Assembly (NCBI RefSeq): GCF_056712565.1
Contig: NZ_CM160072.1
Strand: one strand, 5' to 3'
DNA length: 64,000 nucleotides
Each line of letters begins with the position of its first letter. Within the stretch, counting starts at the first letter, position 1. The position numbers and the translations under genes are program-made. Below are positions 19,296-27,835 of the stretch, one piece after another. The notes beneath the pieces were generated by a model. It was not told the origin of the DNA. It ran no database searches and saw only the letters and a list, made by a program, of their open reading frames with translations.

Positions 19296-19301
19296 TTGAA
19301 G

Positions 19302-19329
19302 ATTGCCGGGGGGATATCCACCCGGCAAT
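19302..19329 (+). terminator. Hairpin ATTGCCGGG..CCCGGCAAT after gltP
   Basis: 9-bp perfect stem with an internally palindromic loop (GGATATCC); no strong U-tract. Confidence 0.4.
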
Positions 19330-19374
19330 GTGTGGATGCCTGACTGAGTAATAGCCTGATGTAGCGTGATTTTT

Positions 19375-19441
19375 GTAGGTCGGATAAGGCGTTTACGCCG
19401 CATCCGACATCAATGCCTGATGCGACGTTTGCTGCGCCTAC
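19375..19441. repeat. REP element pair (GTAGGTCGGATAAGGCGTTTACGCCGCATCCGAC / GCCTGATGCGACG..)
   Basis: Canonical REP palindromes between gltP and yjcO. Confidence 0.8.
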
Positions 19442-19442
19442 C

Positions 19443-20132
19443 TTAACCGTTAGTTAATTTTTCAAACTCTTCACAACCGGTATCAAATCCTTCCATACAG
19501 CTCAGATTCAACCAGTGCAGCGCCTTTTGTTTATTCTTCTCGATAAAACCCTCTTCACCGTTTAAGAACATCATTCCCGCCCAGTATTCGGAATAACCGG
19601 TTCGGGAAATCGCGGAGCTACGCTTGAAATACCAGGTTGCTTTGTCATCGTCGGCCTTAATGCCCACGCCGTTGGCGTAAATCAAACCAAGCAGCATTTG
19701 GGCATCGACGGCAGAGTCGTTCTCCAGATCTTCCGAGGCGTTTTCTAACAGCGAAATCGCCTTTGGATAATCCGGTTTACCCGCTTGCGTATTTACCAGA
19801 ATATGCGCCAGCGTTACTTCACCTTCTTTACTGCCCGCTTGCGCTGCTTTCTCGGCAAGCACTTTTGCTTGTGGATAGTCCAGACTGACCGGATTGGTGA
19901 TTTTGATCTGCGCCAACAGCGCACAGGCATCGGCATCACCGCTGTCGGCGGCTTTCTGTGCCCAATATTCGGCTTTGCTCAAATCGCCGGAGCTAAACCA
20001 GCTGTCGGCAAGAAAATATTGTGCGCGTCGGTCTCCGGCCTCTGCTGCCTTTAAATACTGGCTGCCAGGCTCGGAGTCGTTCGCGTGGGCAAAGAATGTC
20101 AAAAACAACATCAAAGTGATAATTTTTTTCAT
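19443..20132 (-). CDS. yjcO: Sel1/TPR-repeat periplasmic protein
   Basis: 229 aa from MKKIITLMLFLTFFAHA signal peptide; repeated GxGxxxDxxxAxxWY Sel1-like units. Confidence 0.85.
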   Translation of the reverse strand: MKKIITLMLFLTFFAHANDSEPGSQYLKAAEAGDRRAQYFLADSWFSSGDLSKAEYWAQKAADSGDADACALLAQIKITNPVSLDYPQAKVLAEKAAQAGSKEGEVTLAHILVNTQAGKPDYPKAISLLENASEDLENDSAVDAQMLLGLIYANGVGIKADDDKATWYFKRSSAISRTGYSEYWAGMMFLNGEEGFIEKNKQKALHWLNLSCMEGFDTGCEEFEKLTNG

Positions 20133-20242
20133 TTTGATAATGAAGTTTGGTAGGGGAGAGACAGTATAAAGTGTTCGGGTGGACAAAAAAACAACTGTAA
20201 AAAGACCTGAAAGCAGAATGAATTAATGCAATGTCAGGTTTT

Positions 20243-20947
20243 TTAATCCATCCGATGTTCCCCCTTTTCCATGGCGTCGCGATCAAAAAATCGCTGAATT
20301 TTTCCCTCGGACATCAATGCCGCTCGATCAGACATATGCGCGATGACATCGGCATCGTGACTGACCAGCAGATATGTCATTTGGTGTTCCAGCTTAAGTT
20401 GATTCAACAAATTAAGGATTTCCGCTTGTACCGACATATCCAACGCCGAGGTGGGTTCATCCAGCAGAAGAAGTTGTGGTCGTAACAACAGGGCGCGAGC
20501 AATAACCACACGTTGCCGTTGACCACCGGAAAGCTGGTGTGGGTAGCGACGAGCGGCGTCGAAAGGCAAGCCAACCTGTTCCAGTGCAGTCTGGACGCGT
20601 TTTTCTATTTCTCTTTCGCCACGAATTTTGAGTGGTTCAGCCAGCGTTCGCCACAGAGTATGATTGGGATGCAACGAGGCATAGGGATCCTGAAACACCA
20701 TTTGCACATTGCGGCGGAGATCGCCTTGAAAACGCATTCCTGGTTTGATGGTGTGCCCAAACAGTGACACCTGACCGTGCCAGTCGCGCTGTAATCCAGC
20801 AATTACGCGCAAAATCGTGGATTTTCCGCAGCTTGATTCGCCAATTAAACTAAATGTCTCTCCGGCATTAACCGAAAAACTGGCGGCAGAAACTGCGGTT
20901 TTCTCAGCAAAAGTCACCTGTAAGTGATTAATTTCAACAATCGTCAT
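20243..20947 (-). CDS. ABC transporter ATP-binding protein (short NikE/DppF-like)
   Basis: 234-aa ORF with Walker A GESSCGKST, signature LSGGQRQR, Walker B LLLDEPTSALD. Confidence 0.85.
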   Translation of the reverse strand: MTIVEINHLQVTFAEKTAVSAASFSVNAGETFSLIGESSCGKSTILRVIAGLQRDWHGQVSLFGHTIKPGMRFQGDLRRNVQMVFQDPYASLHPNHTLWRTLAEPLKIRGEREIEKRVQTALEQVGLPFDAARRYPHQLSGGQRQRVVIARALLLRPQLLLLDEPTSALDMSVQAEILNLLNQLKLEHQMTYLLVSHDADVIAHMSDRAALMSEGKIQRFFDRDAMEKGEHRMD

Positions 20948-21770
20948 GGTATTTCTCCGGCGTCATTGCCGTCCTGTCCAGCGTCGGCAGCATCTGCCCG
21001 TAAGTTTGTGCATTTGGGCGGCAAGTCCACAGTGTGCGCGTGTAAGGATGCGTTGCTGTAGGTAGCGCAGCAGCGTGCATTTCATCCACCTTATTTCCCT
21101 GATACATCACCAGCACCCGATGGCAAAATTGGGCAACTAATGGCAGGTCGTGACTGATCAGCAACATTGCCATCTGACGTTGTTCACACTGGGTAACCAG
21201 CAGTTCCAGAATCTGATTACGCAGGCGCACATCCAGTGCTGATGTTGGCTCATCGGCAATCAATACCCGGGGATCGTTGATGAGCGCAATTGCAATCATC
21301 ACTCGCTGCCCCATGCCGCCAGAAAGTTCACGAGGATAGCTTTGCAGTACTCGCGTATTGAGGCCGACAGCCTGAATTGCGGTGTTTATTTTCTCTTCTT
21401 TCTCGCGGCGGTTCAGACGTTGATGGAGCGTAAGCGCCTCTTCCAGTTGCGCTTTTACTGTCTTTACTGGATTAAGCGCGTAACGCGGATCTTGCAATAC
21501 CATCGCGATATCGTTACCGCGCAACTGTTGCCATCCACGCGCGTTAAGGGTGAGTGCATCACGCCCCAGAATGTTAAGTGTGTCCGCGGTTACTACACCC
21601 GGTTTACGCACCAGCCCCATCAGGGCGCGGGCGGTCATGGACTTACCTGAACCCGACTCACCGACCAGCGCCAGACGTTCATTGCCTAATGTAAAACTGA
21701 CATTGTTGACGACCCGGGACTCCGGATAATCGACGCAGAGATTGTTGATACTAAGACGTGAGTCAGTCAT
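20934..21770 (-). CDS. ABC transporter ATP-binding protein (short NikD/DppD-like)
   Basis: Walker A GESGSGKS, signature LSGGMGQR, Walker B LIADEPTSALD; start taken at MTDSRLSINN, giving an ATGACTGA overlap with the upstream permease stop. Confidence 0.85.
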   Translation of the reverse strand: MTDSRLSINNLCVDYPESRVVNNVSFTLGNERLALVGESGSGKSMTARALMGLVRKPGVVTADTLNILGRDALTLNARGWQQLRGNDIAMVLQDPRYALNPVKTVKAQLEEALTLHQRLNRREKEEKINTAIQAVGLNTRVLQSYPRELSGGMGQRVMIAIALINDPRVLIADEPTSALDVRLRNQILELLVTQCEQRQMAMLLISHDLPLVAQFCHRVLVMYQGNKVDEMHAAALPTATHPYTRTLWTCRPNAQTYGQMLPTLDRTAMTPEKYHDDC

Positions 21771-22596
21771 GTTGAGGCTCCAGAACATCGCGCAAGCCAT
21801 CACCCAGCAGATTAAAGGCCAGACTGGCAATTAAGATAATTGCGCCGGGAGCGGCGGCAATCCACCATTGATCAAAAATGACCTGCATACCGTCGGCGAT
21901 CATGGCTCCCCATTCCGCCATTGGCGGGCGAGCACCAAGCCCAAGAAAACCCAGGCCAGCAGCCGCCAGAATGATACCCGCTAAATCCAGTGCCAGACGG
22001 ACAATGGCAGATGGCAGGCACAATGGTAAAATATGACCAGCCAGCAGACGCCTGCCGCGGATGCCCATCATTTCTGCGGCGGCAAGATAATCACTGTGTC
22101 GCAGACGTTGGATCTCACTCCGTGCCTGACGCGCATAAGCAGGCCAGGTGGTTAATGCCAGGGCCAGTGCGCCGTTAACCAGCCCCGGCCCCAGCATGGC
22201 AACAAAAGCAAAAGCCAGAATTAAACGCGGCATTGACATTACTACGTCAGTAAAACGCATCAGCACGCGTTCCAGCCAGCCGCCGTAGTACCCGGCTAAA
22301 ATGCCAATCAGCAGACCGACCGGGAGTGTAATGATTGTCACCAATGCCACCAGCCCCAGTGCCGGGCGGCTGCCGTAGATTAAACGTGAAAGTAGGTCTC
22401 GTCCGTAACTGTCAGTGCCGAGCCAGTGCTGACGACTCGGTGCTTGTAACCGCGCCGCCGCATCCTGCCAGTTAGGATCGTGAGGTGCCAGCCACGGCGC
22501 GAAGAGCGCAATTAGCATTAATAACAGGATAATTATCAACCCGCAAAACGCGGCGGGTGAATGGCGTAAACGGCGTAAAAAGAGAAACATCGGCAT
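21763..22596 (-). CDS. ABC transporter permease (NikC/DppC-like)
   Basis: 277-aa polytopic ORF; start overlaps the stop of the upstream permease by 1 nt. Confidence 0.85.
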   Translation of the reverse strand: MPMFLFLRRLRHSPAAFCGLIIILLLMLIALFAPWLAPHDPNWQDAAARLQAPSRQHWLGTDSYGRDLLSRLIYGSRPALGLVALVTIITLPVGLLIGILAGYYGGWLERVLMRFTDVVMSMPRLILAFAFVAMLGPGLVNGALALALTTWPAYARQARSEIQRLRHSDYLAAAEMMGIRGRRLLAGHILPLCLPSAIVRLALDLAGIILAAAGLGFLGLGARPPMAEWGAMIADGMQVIFDQWWIAAAPGAIILIASLAFNLLGDGLRDVLEPQHD

Positions 22597-23645
22597 CAGC
22601 GTAACCTCGGATCGGTCAGCCGGACCAGCAGGTCGGTTAAGTTATTTATCAACACAAAGCAGACGCCAATCAGCAGCGTTCCTCCCATGATTGCTGTGGT
22701 ATCACCCGCGAAGAGCGCTGTAGTGAGGTAGCGCCCAATACCTGGCCATGAAAAGACGGTTTCTGTCAGTACCGCGCCTTCCAGCATTGATGTATAGGCG
22801 AGGGCGATAACGGTGAGCAAGGTGCCGCGAATGTTGGGTAAAACATGACGTAGCAAAATTGTCATCTCGCTGGCCCCTTTGGCGCGCGCCAGCAGAATAT
22901 ATTCTTTATTCATTTCGCCAAGACAGGCGGAACGAGTCAGGCGCGTAATACTGGCGAGCGAGAAGTACGCCAGTAATAAAACCGGAAGTATCAAATGGTT
23001 GATTGCATTGGTAAATGCCTCGCGATCGCCAGAAAGCCACGTATCAATCAGCGCAAATCCGCTGCGGGGTTCTATGGTGAATTGATAAATATCATCCAGC
23101 CTGCCCGGCCCGGCACTCCATTGCAGTCTGGCGTAGAACAGCGCCAGCATCAGCAGACCAAGCCAAAAAACAGGGACGGAATTTCCCAGTAGAGTTAATG
23201 TTCGCACGGTGAAATCCAGCGGAGAACCGACATAACGGGCGCAAAGTACACCCGCAATGACGCCGACAACAGCACCGACAATAAGCGCCAACGTTGCCAG
23301 TTCAATGGTCGCCGGGAATACTGATAGCAAGTCCTGGAGTACCGGTTGCCCGGTGGAGCTGGCGATGCCCAGATCGCCGTGTGCCAGATTCATCAGGTAA
23401 TGCCAGAACTGGACGGCTAACGGCTGATCCAATCCTAACTGGTGGCGTACCTGATCATAGGTGGACTGGCTGGCGTGATCGCCAACGATTTGTAGTACGC
23501 GATCGACCGGTGAGAGAGCCGAAAGCGCAAAGGTAATCAGCAGCAGGCCGAGTAGCGTCAGAGCAACGGTAAACAGCCCTTGCAACAGCGCGAGCAGAGG
23601 GCGCTTGCCTCGCCATCTCGCGCGAGTGGAAAAAACGACAGACAT
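22596..23645 (-). CDS. ABC transporter permease (NikB/DppB-like)
   Basis: Polytopic ORF; start uncertain, ATG at 23645 (349 aa) preferred over the ATG at 23738 because two strong stem-loops occupy 23660-23740. Confidence 0.8.
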   Translation of the reverse strand: MSVVFSTRARWRGKRPLLALLQGLFTVALTLLGLLLITFALSALSPVDRVLQIVGDHASQSTYDQVRHQLGLDQPLAVQFWHYLMNLAHGDLGIASSTGQPVLQDLLSVFPATIELATLALIVGAVVGVIAGVLCARYVGSPLDFTVRTLTLLGNSVPVFWLGLLMLALFYARLQWSAGPGRLDDIYQFTIEPRSGFALIDTWLSGDREAFTNAINHLILPVLLLAYFSLASITRLTRSACLGEMNKEYILLARAKGASEMTILLRHVLPNIRGTLLTVIALAYTSMLEGAVLTETVFSWPGIGRYLTTALFAGDTTAIMGGTLLIGVCFVLINNLTDLLVRLTDPRLR

Positions 23646-23744
23646 GATCTTTCCATACAGTGATAAATCAGCGGCTGGCCTGCAATACAGGCCAGCCCTG
23701 GTACCGCGCCCGGTAACAGGGCTGGACGCGAGTTGCATACAGGG

Positions 23745-25313
23745 TTATTTGGTTACCTGATCAAACCAGACCATATCGGCATTCAACCCTTGTTGATACC
23801 CCTGCACATTATCACGCATGACAATTTGCGTTTTGCCTTGATCAATAAAGACATACGGGGAACTACGTTGTAGTTCTTGTTGCATTTTCTTATACAAATC
23901 AAGACGTTTAGTGCTATCAGGTTCAGCGATGGCCGCCAGCGTTTCTTTGTTCAGTTCCGGGATTTTCCAGCCGTTTAACCCGGCAACGGTGCTGGATTTG
24001 CCATCGTTATAGGCGAAAGAGCTGGCGTTGGAATGTGCGTCAAAATAATCAGGCAACCACATACGAATGGCCCCCTGATGCTGGTGGGCGCGAACGCGAG
24101 AGTAGACCTGACTCCCTGCGGCTGGCAGCAAATCAACTTTTACACCGCCCTGAGCAAAGCTGGCCTGAATTGACTGCGCGATGGTAATAAATGGCGGTTT
24201 ATTTTCGACATCAAGCGTGAAGTGCGGGTCTTTGATTCCGGCTTTAGCGAGGATCTCTTTTGCTTTGGCTGGATTAAAGGTAAACGGTGTTTCTTCCAGT
24301 GCTCCAGGAAAGCCCACGGGCAGGAAACTTTGATGGGTAAAATATTGTCCTTTTAAGAGATTTTTGGTGATGCCGTCGTAATCGACCAACCAGCGAGCGG
24401 CCTCCCAGAACGCAGGATTACTCATCAGCGGGTTATCCTTGTTACCGGTATTGAAGGCCAGGTAGTTCTGTTCGGCGGAGGCAATGCTCATCACTTTTAC
24501 GCCAGGTTTACCCTGTAATGCATCGATTTGATCGGCTCCCAGATCACGAGCCATATCAGCATCACCTTGTTGGATCAGCAGGCGACGCGTTGCCGGATCG
24601 GGAACATTTTTGATGATGACGTTTTTCAGTTTCGGGGCGCCGGTTGGTGAGCTGGCGTTGGCTTCCATCACGATGGCCTGATGCGGTTGGTAAGTACGCA
24701 TTTTAAACGCGCCGCTGCCAGCGGAATGCATCTTCAGCCATTCATTACCAAAGTCGTTATTTTTGGCGTTTGGCGCAACCAGCTTCTCGTCAACAATTGA
24801 GGCGATTGGTGTGGAGAGAATATTCAGTGCCAGCGCCGGGCTGACGTCGGCACTCCATTGCACCTGGACGGTATGGTCATCGATTTTCTTCAACTGGCTG
24901 GCGATATTTTCCGGCTGCCATCCCAGCACATTGAGAATAAACGCACCGGATTTATTCAGTGTGACAGCCCGGACATAAGAGTAAATCACATCTTCCGGGC
25001 GTACCGGATTACCAGAGGCAAATTTCGCATCGCTTTTCAGTTTTATGGTTAGCGTTTTGGCTGCGGGGTCAGCCTGCCAACTTTCCGCCAGAATCGGAGT
25101 GATTTTCGTCGGATCATTACGGTCCGGTTGTACTACGCGTTGATACAGACTTGGTACAGTCTGAATACTTGAGAGTTCATTAGCTTCTGCCGGGTCCAGA
25201 CTCACAATATCATCCAGTCCCTGGGCTACAACCAACGTATTAGGCGGTGTAGCGGCAACGGTTGTGGCGGAAATTGTGCTTAAAACCAGTAAAGGTAATA
25301 GTTTTTTAATCAT
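23745..25313 (-). CDS. Periplasmic substrate-binding protein, family 5 (peptide/nickel/opine type)
   Basis: 522-aa ORF with signal peptide MIKKLLPLLVLSTISATTVAA; size and architecture like NikA/DppA/OppA. Confidence 0.85.
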   Translation of the reverse strand: MIKKLLPLLVLSTISATTVAATPPNTLVVAQGLDDIVSLDPAEANELSSIQTVPSLYQRVVQPDRNDPTKITPILAESWQADPAAKTLTIKLKSDAKFASGNPVRPEDVIYSYVRAVTLNKSGAFILNVLGWQPENIASQLKKIDDHTVQVQWSADVSPALALNILSTPIASIVDEKLVAPNAKNNDFGNEWLKMHSAGSGAFKMRTYQPHQAIVMEANASSPTGAPKLKNVIIKNVPDPATRRLLIQQGDADMARDLGADQIDALQGKPGVKVMSIASAEQNYLAFNTGNKDNPLMSNPAFWEAARWLVDYDGITKNLLKGQYFTHQSFLPVGFPGALEETPFTFNPAKAKEILAKAGIKDPHFTLDVENKPPFITIAQSIQASFAQGGVKVDLLPAAGSQVYSRVRAHQHQGAIRMWLPDYFDAHSNASSFAYNDGKSSTVAGLNGWKIPELNKETLAAIAEPDSTKRLDLYKKMQQELQRSSPYVFIDQGKTQIVMRDNVQGYQQGLNADMVWFDQVTK

Positions 25314-25487
25314 ATGCTTCCCAATCCCTGAAATTACTTTGAGGTTATTAATATGCTATCAGACGGGGTTTCGCTGCATTAATCGCGCCAGAATATCCCG
25401 TTAATAGAACGAGTTAAACGGTCGATGATTTCTCACCTTACCGAAATTTTGTTTATCAAATGTAAAGTATTATTACGTTAGGCCGCG

Positions 25488-25515
25488 ATGAGAATTGAGT
25501 AAAGATAATTCTCAT
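25488..25515. promoter_or_regulatory. Perfect palindrome ATGAGAATT-N10-AATTCTCAT upstream of the ABC operon, candidate operator
   Basis: 9-bp perfect inverted repeat arms about 175 bp upstream of the substrate-binding protein start codon. Confidence 0.3.
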
Positions 25516-25608
25516 TTGCAATCGTGACTGGAATAGAAGAACAACCGAGAAGACGTCGCTAATAACCAGGATGGGCTGGTTTGACTGCGCAGGTATGTAT
25601 AAAAAAAT

Positions 25609-25644
25609 CCGGAAACAGAGAGTCGTTTCCGGATTGATACAAAG
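25609..25644 (-). terminator. Rho-independent terminator of fdhF
   Basis: Perfect 10-bp stem ATCCGGAAAC/GTTTCCGGAT with 8-nt loop, followed on the minus strand by a run of 7-8 U. Confidence 0.7.
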
Positions 25645-25687
25645 GCGTTGGGTAATATCGCCGCTTTTAACGTGAGTTTACGCGGTA

Positions 25688-27835
25688 TTACGCCAGTGCC
25701 GCTTCGCGCAGGCGAGTTTTCAACTTGTTGTACTCGTCAATCACGTACTGCTCGGCGGCGCGCTGATCGGCGATCGGCTCGACGCGCACGGCGCAGTATT
25801 TGTATTCCGGCGTTTTCGTAATCGGGCTTAAGTTTTCGGTCACCAGCTCGTTACAGGCACCAATCCACCACTGGTAGGTCATGTAAATCGCCCCTTTGTT
25901 CGGACGATCGCTGACCTGCGCACGGGTGATAATTTTGCCTTTACGCGAGTGCACCCAAACCAATGCCTCATCTTCAATACCCAGACGTTTGGCGTCTTCG
26001 GTATTGATTTGTGCGTAGCCAGGTTCATCAGCCAGCGCCGCCAGTGCCGCACAGTTACCGGTCATCGAACGGCAAGAGTAGTGACCAACTTCACGCACCG
26101 TTGACAGTACCATCGGGTACTCGTCGGTGAGTTTGTCGATTGGCGCTACCCAGTCGCAGGTGAAGAACTGCGCCAGACCGTTCGGGGTATCAAACTTCTC
26201 TTTAAACAGATAAGAAGTCCCCTGATCGGCATCTGAAGTATCGCGGCAAGGCCACTGAATGAAGCCCAGTTCGCCCATTTTCTCGTAAGTCGCACCGTAG
26301 AAATCCGGGCACAGATGACGCAACTCGTCCCAGATCTCCTGGGTGTTGTTGTAGTGCATCGGATAACCCATACGAGTGGCAATTTCACTGATGATTTGCC
26401 AGTCCGTTTTCAGATCCCACTTCGGCTCAACCGCCTTGAAGAAACGCTGGAAGCCACGGTCAGCCGCAGTAAACACGCCTTCATGCTCGCCCCACGACGT
26501 TGACGGTAAAATGACATCCGCCGCCGACGCGGTTTTGGTCATAAAGATGTCCTGAACGATAACCAGTTCCAGATCTTCAAAGGCTTTACGTACTGCCGAC
26601 AGTTCCGCGTCAGTTTGCAGCGGATCTTCGCCCATAATGTACGCCGCTCTCACTTCACCATGCGCCACGCGGTGCGGCAGCTCGCTGATACGATAACCGG
26701 TATGAGCAGGCAGGCTTTCCACGCCCCAGGCTTTGGCAAATTTCTCGCGGTTAGCCGGATCTTTCACGTACTGATAGCCCGGATACGTATCCGGCAGCGC
26801 GCCCATATCGCAGGCACCCTGCACGTTGTTCTGACCACGAACCGGGTTTACACCCGCATGTGGCTTACCGAGGTTACCGGTCAGCATCGCGAGGCTGGTC
26901 AGAGAACGCACGGTTTCCACGCCCTGATAGAACTGGGTTACCCCCATGCCCCACAGGATGGCGGCGCTTTCCGCCTGGGCATACATCCGCGCCGCCTGAC
27001 GAATCTCACTGGCGCTGACGCCGGTGATATCTTCAACCGACTCCGGCGTGTAGCCTTCAACGATTTTACGATACTCTTCAAAGCCTTCTGTACGGGAAGC
27101 GACGAACGCTTTGTCGTACAGATTTTCTTCAATAATGACATGGCCCATCGCATTCAACAGCGCGATGTTCGAGCCGTTTTTCAATGCAATGTGCATGTCA
27201 GCAATGCGCGCGGTTTCAATTTTACGCGGATCGCAGACGATAATTTTCGCCCCGTTACGTTTAGCGTTAATTACGTGATTCGCCACGATTGGGTGGGAAT
27301 CCGCCGGGTTATACCCGAAAACGAACACTAAATCGGTATTATCAATTTCGTTAATAGCATTGCTCATTGCGCCATTACCGACCGATTGGTGCAGACCTGC
27401 AACCGATGGGCCGTGTCAGACACGAGCGCAGCAGTCAACGTTATTGGTACCAATAACGGCGCGCGCAAATTTTTGCATTACATAGTTGGTTTCGTTACCC
27501 GTACCGCGCGAGGAGCCGGTCGTCTGGATGGCATCCGGACCGTACTTCTCTTTGATGGCGCTCAGGCGCTCGGCAACGTAATTCAGTGCCTCATCCCAGG
27601 AAACAGGTTCGAGTTTGCCGCCACGCTGGCGACGGATCATGGGGGTTTTCAGGCGCGGGGTCAGGATCTGGGTATCGTTAATGAAGTCCCAGCCATAATA
27701 ACCCTTCAGACACAGGGTACCCTGGTTGGTTTTCCCCTGCGCTGCCTCCGCCCGGACGATTTTGCCGTTATCGACGACCAGGTTGATTTTGCAACCTGAT
27801 GCGCAATAGGGGCAAACCGTGACGACTTTTTTCAT
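25688..27835 (-). CDS. fdhF: Formate dehydrogenase H, selenocysteine-containing molybdoenzyme; in-frame TGA (Sec) at 27417-27419
   Basis: The 139-aa and 559-aa ORFs are contiguous in one frame across a single TGA (..DCCARV-U-HGPSVAGLHQ..); N-terminal CPYCASGC Fe-S motif; total 715 aa. Confidence 0.9.
27370..27416 (-). other. fdhF SECIS stem-loop directing selenocysteine insertion at the TGA
   Basis: mRNA immediately 3' of the UGA (CACGGCCCAUCGGUUGCAGGUCUGCACCAAUCGGUCGG) is the hairpin-forming segment known as the fdhF SECIS. Confidence 0.6.

Follow-up and report, generated by a model that had tools for sequence, protein, structure and literature searches.

The described transporters that come closest to the system considered here all belong to the peptide/opine/nickel (Opp/Dpp/Nik) family of ATP-binding cassette (ABC) importers, and include the DdpABCDF system of Escherichia coli K-12, a putative D,D-dipeptide importer whose genes are expressed under nitrogen limitation, the peptide importer DppABCDF, the nickel importer NikABCDE, the staphylopine-metal importer CntABCDF, and the glutathione proteins GsiABCD and GbpA. 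A further member is found in the 64,000-nucleotide stretch of contig NZ_CM160072.1 (NCBI RefSeq assembly GCF_056712565.1) analysed here and hereafter called the window, in which five co-oriented minus-strand genes at positions 20243-25313 lie between yjcO (19443-20132) and fdhF (25688-27835), both also on the minus strand. Judged from its sequence, the yjcO-fdhF operon is an ordinary-looking, uncharacterised member of a very large transporter family, and is nearer to Ddp and Dpp than to Nik. On balance, it is somewhat probable that the operon encodes a functional importer of a peptide-like substrate that was ancestral in Escherichia and was then lost once in E. coli outside the B2-type lineage. 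Searches of the full-text literature found no paper on the operon and none that assigns it a substrate, the one paper rich in mentions of yjcO being concerned with an unrelated deletion fusion in a long-term evolution experiment, and the database source names for the protein cluster of its substrate-binding protein (SBP) are all generic.

Anatomy of the operon and its likeness to known importers

The open reading frame (ORF) listing and the RefSeq annotation of E. coli ATCC 11775, to which the window is 100% identical across the 6.4 kb tested, agree on one binding protein, two permeases and two ATPases, all encoded on the minus strand. Specifically, these are a periplasmic SBP of family 5 (PF00496; 522 aa, 23745-25313), a DppB/DdpB-like permease B (349 aa by the RefSeq start, 22596-23645), a DdpC/NikC-like permease C (277 aa, 21763-22596), ATPase D (278 aa, 20934-21770) and ATPase E (234 aa, 20243-20947). 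The mechanical ORF of permease B starts further upstream than the annotated one and would encode 380 aa. Overlaps of 1 to 14 bases between gene ends are as expected for an operon. The SBP carries a Sec-type signal peptide (MIKKLLPLLVLSTISATTVA, followed by ATPP) with no lipobox, as read from its translation; PF00496 is recorded for its protein cluster, and ten family-5 NCBIfam models match it. The two permeases are of the DppB and DppC types (NCBIfam matches of 242 and 279 bits, respectively), and their orthologues carry PF00528, PF19300 and PF12911. In both ATPases Pfam finds ABC_tran (PF00005) only, with no match in either to the oligo_HPY tail (PF08352), and the Walker A, signature, Walker B and H-loop motifs are readable in both translations. 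The operon is, in short, an intact five-gene ABC importer of the Opp/Dpp/Nik type. A first-pass annotation, made from the letters of the window, had described a five-gene family-5 importer at 20243-25313 with a 522-aa binding protein and ATPases of 278 and 234 aa, all of which is correct by ORF listing, RefSeq annotation and Pfam/NCBIfam, and it had rightly noted that both short ATPases are without a C-terminal extension.

To place all five subunits on a common scale, each was compared by BLASTP with the Ddp, Dpp and Nik systems of K-12. The SBP scores 159 bits against DdpA, 115 against DppA and 80 against NikA; permease B scores 228 against DppB, 225 against DdpB and 158 against NikB; and permease C scores 231 against DdpC, 184 against DppC and 175 against NikC. 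Similarly, ATPase D scores 189 bits against DppD, 172 against DdpD and 128 against NikD, and ATPase E scores 169 against DdpF, 155 against DppF and 129 against NikE. Nik is the lowest of the three systems for every subunit, and the best is in each case Ddp or Dpp.

Of the described systems, Ddp shares with the operon its five-subunit A-B-C-D-F layout and provides the best K-12 paralogue for the SBP (30% identity), for permease C (45% to DdpC) and for ATPase E (44% to DdpF). It differs in that ddpX is absent from the window, in that DdpD and DdpF have C-terminal extensions (328 and 308 aa, as against 278 and 234 aa here), and in that DdpA departs from the residues specific to the new family at G189, W192, Q328, R408 and H427; moreover, subunit identities of 30-45% are below the level of orthology, and the DdpC model reaches 278 bits against a cut-off of 434. 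Dpp is of the same family and fold and supplies the top BLASTP scores for subunits B and D, but DppA is only 24% identical to the SBP, its R355 loop is absent, and the oligo_HPY tails are missing here. Nik likewise has five genes and short ATPases without oligo_HPY, and differs in its ligand residues and in the regulatory features discussed below. Cnt shares a family-5 SBP and short ATPases with the operon, the CntD and CntF models giving about 200 bits for ATPase D; it differs in that no opine-synthesis genes occur here, the neighbours being yjcO and fdhF only. Finally, the glutathione proteins offer a comparable fold match (1uqw, template modelling (TM) score 0.83; 3m8u, E = 1e-38), but GsiA is a fused double ATPase, as opposed to the two separate short ATPases of the operon.

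With the curated NCBIfam models the SBP stays far below every cut-off: it scores 110.9 bits with NikA (cut-off 393), 106.7 with DppA (1005), 104.6 with GsiB (594), 92.5 with Opp5A/NikA (600) and 84.2 with CntA (800). The SBP does not group firmly with any characterised transporter, peptide importers included.

Ancestry and distribution of the operon in Escherichia

Of 5426 complete E. coli genomes, 1043 carry the operon and about 81% are without it. Among the 1044 matching records 1042 reach at least 99% identity, and 1042 of the 1044 copies are chromosomal; the other 2 SBP gene copies are on records labelled plasmid, and one genome has two copies. The carriers represent one flank haplotype, for which the label B2 is assigned here from strain names and which includes ATCC 11775, strains of sequence type 131 (ST131), M1/5 and clone D i14 (ST73). 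Genomes whose flanks are at least 99% identical to the window number 1042, equal to the carriers at that identity, and no loss of the operon is thus seen within the haplotype. One protein, P0004 (93%, 485 aa), was considered as a possible new lineage and rejected as a truncated copy at the same locus.

In K-12, yjcO and fdhF are adjacent, as the first-pass annotation had said, and lie 93 bp apart with no operon between them; the operon is not something that K-12 and most E. coli share. Comparison of the junctions delimits a segment at 20194-25683 (5,490 bp) that is present in B2-type E. coli and in Escherichia albertii and absent from K-12. In its place, genomes of the K-12 type have 28 bp (GCCTCCGAAAGGAGGCTGTAGAAAGGAC) that form a different fdhF terminator, and this empty site, filler included, is the same in K-12, O157:H7 OK1 and strain 98215 apart from one flanking base. 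On the far side of yjcO, the gltP-yjcO spacer also varies in length, with 147 bp in the window (19296-19442), 530 bp in K-12 (comparison locus L002, 2524-3053) and about 1 kb in clone D i14; in the window's spacer, Rfam gives a naRNA4/REP-like match at 19378-19442 that stays below threshold (46.7 bits; gathering score 59.5).

Evidence on the age of the operon comes from E. albertii NBRC 107761, in which it occupies the same yjcO-fdhF junction within a region colinear over 16 kb. The operon genes of E. coli and E. albertii are 89-94% identical in nucleotide sequence and the flanking genes 82-96%, and synonymous divergence (dS) from B2 to E. albertii lies at 0.28-0.44 across the five operon genes, as compared with 0.18-0.71 for gltP, yjcO, fdhF and mdtP. 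The ratio of nonsynonymous to synonymous divergence (dN/dS) for the five operon genes is 0.035-0.106 between the same lineages; all five genes are intact and under purifying selection. In the flanks, B2 and K-12 are 96-99.8% identical, above the identity between B2 and E. albertii, so that the flanks follow the species tree and were not imported. No tRNA gene, integrase, insertion sequence or other mobility gene, or flanking repeat was found around the operon, and its G+C content is 51.3%, with 53.2% for the window. Most simply read, these data suggest that the operon already occupied the yjcO-fdhF junction in the common ancestor of E. coli and E. albertii, and that the empty allele now seen in non-B2 E. 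coli arose once, likely through one old loss. That loss would have taken place once in the ancestor of non-B2 E. coli, or in an allele that subsequently spread, and would have left behind the 28-bp filler with its new fdhF terminator. A record labelled E. coli, NZ_CP024131.1 (strain 14EC007; L027), matches E. albertii in this region: its SBP gene is 93.8% identical to that of the window, as is the E. albertii gene, the sequence upstream of it is almost the same as in E. albertii, and its ATPase E gene is annotated as frameshifted.

The first-pass annotation had taken the operon for an accessory insertion, a view that the shared junction in E. albertii, the core-like divergence, the lack of mobility marks and the single empty allele all speak against. 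A horizontally acquired island that entered the B2 lineage and, separately or by exchange, E. albertii would agree with the patchy distribution of the operon (a species-level scan returned only E. albertii among Escherichia species representatives, the junctions of other species not being checked directly), with the different chromosomal sites that the cassette occupies in other genera, and with the 28-bp filler of K-12, which is no simple subset of the B2 sequence. Such an acquisition is nonetheless very unlikely given one junction common to both species, synonymous divergence equal to that of flanking core genes, flanks in which B2 resembles K-12 more than it does E. albertii, host-like G+C content, and surroundings free of repeats, tRNA and mobility genes.

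Relatives, binding protein and candidate substrate

Orthologues of the SBP with 72-86% identity occur in Kluyvera, Klebsiella, Raoultella, Enterobacter, Kosakonia, Yokenella, Buttiauxella, Serratia, Yersinia and Proteus, and in nearly all sampled loci the remaining four genes follow that for the SBP in the same order. The cassette lies between ycjF and tyrR in Kluyvera and between an opp operon and a MarC-family gene in Proteus, and in Klebsiella it adjoins betTIBA; the site varies by genus, and adjacency to fdhF is therefore specific to Escherichia. Serratia possesses an orphan SBP copy (77% identical; L005 and L006, 10001-11569), which is flanked by argI-like and pyrBI genes and has neither a permease nor an ATPase gene next to it; orphan copies are known for peptide SBPs such as MppA. 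More distant whole-cassette homologues, with 33-55% identity, are found in Paraburkholderia and Allorhizobium, and one of these, 40% identical and from Paraburkholderia caffeinitolerans, lies directly downstream of a gene for the D-Ala-D-Ala dipeptidase DdpX (305 bits, cut-off 176). In the enterobacterial loci examined ddpX is absent. Short ATPases are a trait of the whole subfamily, the ddpX-linked locus included; in Proteus, for example, the ATPases of the neighbouring opp operon carry PF08352 and the cassette's own orthologous ATPases do not.

Other neighbours recur in part of the subfamily. Five enterobacterial genera, Klebsiella, Raoultella, Enterobacter, Yokenella and Kosakonia, have a gene linked to the cassette that encodes a GNAT acetyltransferase (Acetyltransf_3, weakly RimL-like, approximately 230 aa; L010 8086-8817, L012 8106-8837, L013 8033-8728, L014 14062-14796 and L020 14151-14834). 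Depending on the genus, this gene lies either upstream of the cassette in divergent orientation or downstream of it; the E. coli window has no such gene. In Klebsiella, genes for a class-III aminotransferase and a YdfG-like dehydrogenase also adjoin the cassette. Together with ddpX, these neighbours point to amino-group chemistry, and as such are hints rather than proof. Among distant homologues, most of them on short metagenomic contigs, no consistent neighbour was found.

An AlphaFold2 model of the SBP (predicted local distance difference test (pLDDT) score 94.3; predicted TM-score 0.90) is placed by Foldseek among cluster-C SBPs at about 20% identity. Its structural neighbours are a mixed set: a Bacillus protein that is uncharacterised, DppA, GbpA and GsiB (both of which bind glutathione), the HEHEAA binder AapF, MppA, SapA, NikA (at rank 16) and the opine binders MoaA and AgaA. 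By sequence the best match in the PDB is DppA (E = 4e-27), and more than 150 clusters formed at 50% identity are closer to the SBP than is DdpA or any characterised protein. The residue D408 of DppA, which binds the peptide amino terminus, aligns to D422 of the SBP, and D422 is kept in 42 of 50 subfamily members as well as in DdpA. The subfamily has conserved residues of its own, namely D187, G189, W192, Q328, R408, D425, H427 and N429, and neither the family motif D187-x-G-[NH]-x-W192 nor Q328 and R408 were found in DdpA.

With moderate confidence, and as a roughly even call, the likeness to Ddp and Dpp, the retained D422 and the hints from gene context suggest that the importer takes up a small peptide or a compound derived from amino acids whose amino group is free, as for Ddp and Dpp, and not a nickel complex. 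In the proposed mechanism, the secreted periplasmic SBP would capture the small solute and deliver it to a heterodimeric channel formed by permeases B and C, which the two short ATPases, D and E, would power; uptake would serve nutrient scavenging, probably of nitrogen. The first-pass annotation had held that the substrate cannot be assigned from sequence alone, a caution that proved sound in that no curated model or solved structure assigns one.

The same annotation had regarded the architecture as closest to that of nickel or metallophore importers, and the proximity of fdhF, whose partner hydrogenase needs nickel, as a hint in that direction. A nickel or metallophore importer supplying the hydrogenase partner of FdhF is quite unlikely. 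In its favour are both ATPases without oligo_HPY, a tail that NikD/E and CntD/F also lack, near-equal scores of permease C with the Opp2C/NikC models (279 and 276 bits) and with DdpC (278), the nominally highest SBP model score of 111 bits for NikA, and the position beside fdhF. Only the short ATPases resemble Nik and Cnt, and they are characteristic of the subfamily as a whole. The NikA, Opp5A and CntA models remain far below cut-off, and Ddp and Dpp outscore Nik for all subunits. Of the three NikA residues that bind Ni-(His)2, R97 pairs with S122 of the SBP, R137 with a gap and H416 with G438 in a ten-sequence alignment that, at 23% identity, is approximate; the conserved histidine of the DAH sequence, H427, was considered as the equivalent of His416 and rejected on the strength of the same alignment. 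Upstream of the operon the best match to a NikR operator is 9/12, a value reached by 10% of random segments, and the window-wide count is at chance level; no nikR was found in the flanks. The cassette's neighbours in approximately 20 loci of other genera include neither nikR nor genes for urease, hydrogenase or opine synthesis. The operon does adjoin fdhF, but only in Escherichia and with a terminator between them. YntA, the nickel SBP of Yersinia and Proteus, was also considered as an identity for the SBP and rejected, no solved nickel SBP being a close match.

Less unlikely, though it too is doubtful, is that the imported solute is organic but not a peptide, for example an opine or Amadori compound, glutathione, a signalling amide of small size or an oligosaccharide. 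Other family-5 binding proteins are known for solutes of this kind, and GbpA, GsiB, AapF, MoaA and AgaA appear among the Foldseek neighbours at the same level as DppA. Consistent with such a role are the varied contexts of distant homologues, which include a PfkB kinase, OsmC with an aminotransferase, and an MFS transporter, and the family-specific D187-x-G-[NH]-x-W192, Q328 and R408. Against it, the loci of Escherichia, Kluyvera and Proteus show no gene for a catabolic enzyme that accompanies the cassette. The presence of D422 fits a ligand with a free amino group, but the same is true of glutathione and of many opines, so that this residue weakens the case for a non-peptide solute only slightly.

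Candidate expression signals and significance of the operon

An intrinsic terminator of fdhF (25606-25635, minus strand), consisting of a 12-bp stem followed by a T run, is kept in E. albertii with changes in the loop, and its position after fdhF indicates that the operon is its own transcription unit. E. coli and E. albertii share 87% identity over the 374 bp upstream of the operon, a region that contains a candidate sigma-54 (-24/-12) promoter, TGGCGC-N5-ATGCA, at 25375-25390 (minus strand), 62-77 nt upstream of the SBP start codon. The motif matches 9 of 11 consensus positions, a relaxed form of the pattern has only two occurrences in the 64-kb window, and TGGCGC and ATGCA are both kept in E. 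albertii while 4 of the 5 spacer bases differ. About 110 bp further upstream, a perfect dyad, ATGAGAATT-N10-AATTCTCAT (25488-25515, minus strand), lies inside a run of approximately 65 bp that is fully conserved between the two species, and is a candidate activator or operator site. The geometry of motif and dyad fits an enhancer-dependent promoter, and it may be sigma-54 that directs transcription of the operon in Escherichia, with the dyad as an upstream site. By analogy, the expression of ddp under nitrogen limitation would parallel the sigma-54-like motif seen here.

Scans of the 374-bp region with Fur, Zur, NikR, FNR, CRP, ArgR, Lrp, TyrR, MetJ, NtrC, PurR, NsrR and IscR consensus sequences found nothing above chance, the dyad included, and no NtrC site is present. 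An ArcA-like site with a 12/15 match, as found in 3% of random segments, was set aside, the stretch in question not being conserved in E. albertii. The upstream regions of Kluyvera, Proteus and Serratia have no motif in common with that of Escherichia; in Kluyvera the region contains an apparent ERIC-like repeat, judged by eye (L007, 9860-9940). In clone D i14, genes for a sigma-54-dependent regulator, a sensor kinase and an Ldh-family oxidoreductase adjoin aphA (L036, 349-3520), approximately 11 kb beyond the left end of the window; K-12 is not known to have these genes at that position. It is possible that this regulator is the partner of the sigma-54-like promoter.

Within the operon, an 11-bp G+C-rich stem-loop lies between the SBP and permease B genes (23673-23697, minus strand), in a spacer whose predicted fold has an energy of -44.1 kcal/mol (z = -3.3). 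The stem-loop is identical in E. albertii, an unrelated hairpin stands at the same place in Kluyvera, and the element probably acts in mRNA stability or partial termination to raise the output of SBP over that of the translocator. Rfam detects neither a riboswitch nor a leader in the operon, and its one genuine match is the selenocysteine insertion sequence (SECIS) of fdhF at 27369-27423 (minus strand; 87 bits against a gathering score of 70). Because fdhF contains an in-frame TGA codon for selenocysteine, the mechanical ORF listing shows its reading frame as two pieces, of 139 and 559 aa.

Several of these data weigh against a functional, ancestral importer of a peptide-like substrate. The SBP reaches no curated model, its best NCBIfam scores (NikA, DppA and GsiB) being those far below cut-off given above, and Foldseek does not separate binders of peptides, glutathione, opines, signal molecules and nickel, all of which lie at about 20% identity. 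The residue that holds the peptide carboxylate in DppA, R355, falls in a gap, in alignments that are approximate at 23-30% identity; the SBP is only 30% identical to DdpA, whose own substrate is only putative, and the link to ddpX is seen in just 1 of 3 distant loci. With regard to expression, neither the sigma-54 motif nor the dyad occurs in other genera, and of the approximately 15 motifs tried one would be expected to look good by chance. With regard to ancestry, presence in the common ancestor needs several losses if Escherichia fergusonii and the cryptic clades are truly without the operon; were other Escherichia species to lack it, the operon would have to have been lost more than once, or the empty allele to have spread through recombination.

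The ddp genes show the opposite pattern of distribution. The pair ddpX-ddpA is present in 4283 of 5426 E. coli genomes, and in genomes without ddpXABCDF, which include an ST131 strain and clone D i14, osmC directly abuts dosP (for comparison in K-12, see L028, 4113-10077). Clone D i14 has the yjcO-fdhF operon and is without ddp, and more generally the B2-type lineage that keeps the operon is without its nearest K-12 paralogue, the reverse also being true. Both differences fall on the same split between B2 and non-B2 and thus amount to a single phylogenetic contrast, which may be coincidence. An extension of the favoured reading, unlikely as it stands, would make the operon the ancestral Escherichia counterpart of Ddp, kept by B2-type strains and E. 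albertii, importing a specific peptide-like compound derived from the host or its microbiota, and driven by sigma-54 through an enhancer-binding protein that recognises the dyad ATGAGAATT-N10-AATTCTCAT. If this were true, the operon would be a lineage-defining nutrient-niche trait of the extraintestinal-pathogenic B2 group.

The change of polarity from insertion to loss matters for pangenome studies, which would otherwise list the operon as a B2 acquisition, and setting aside the nickel label avoids a wrong link to the maturation of formate-hydrogen lyase. The operon cleanly separates the B2-type lineage, to which most extraintestinal pathogenic E. coli belong, from other E. coli, and is as such a useful lineage marker. 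Its apparent fixation in that lineage, taken together with purifying selection on its genes, suggests that the importer probably contributes to fitness in some niche.

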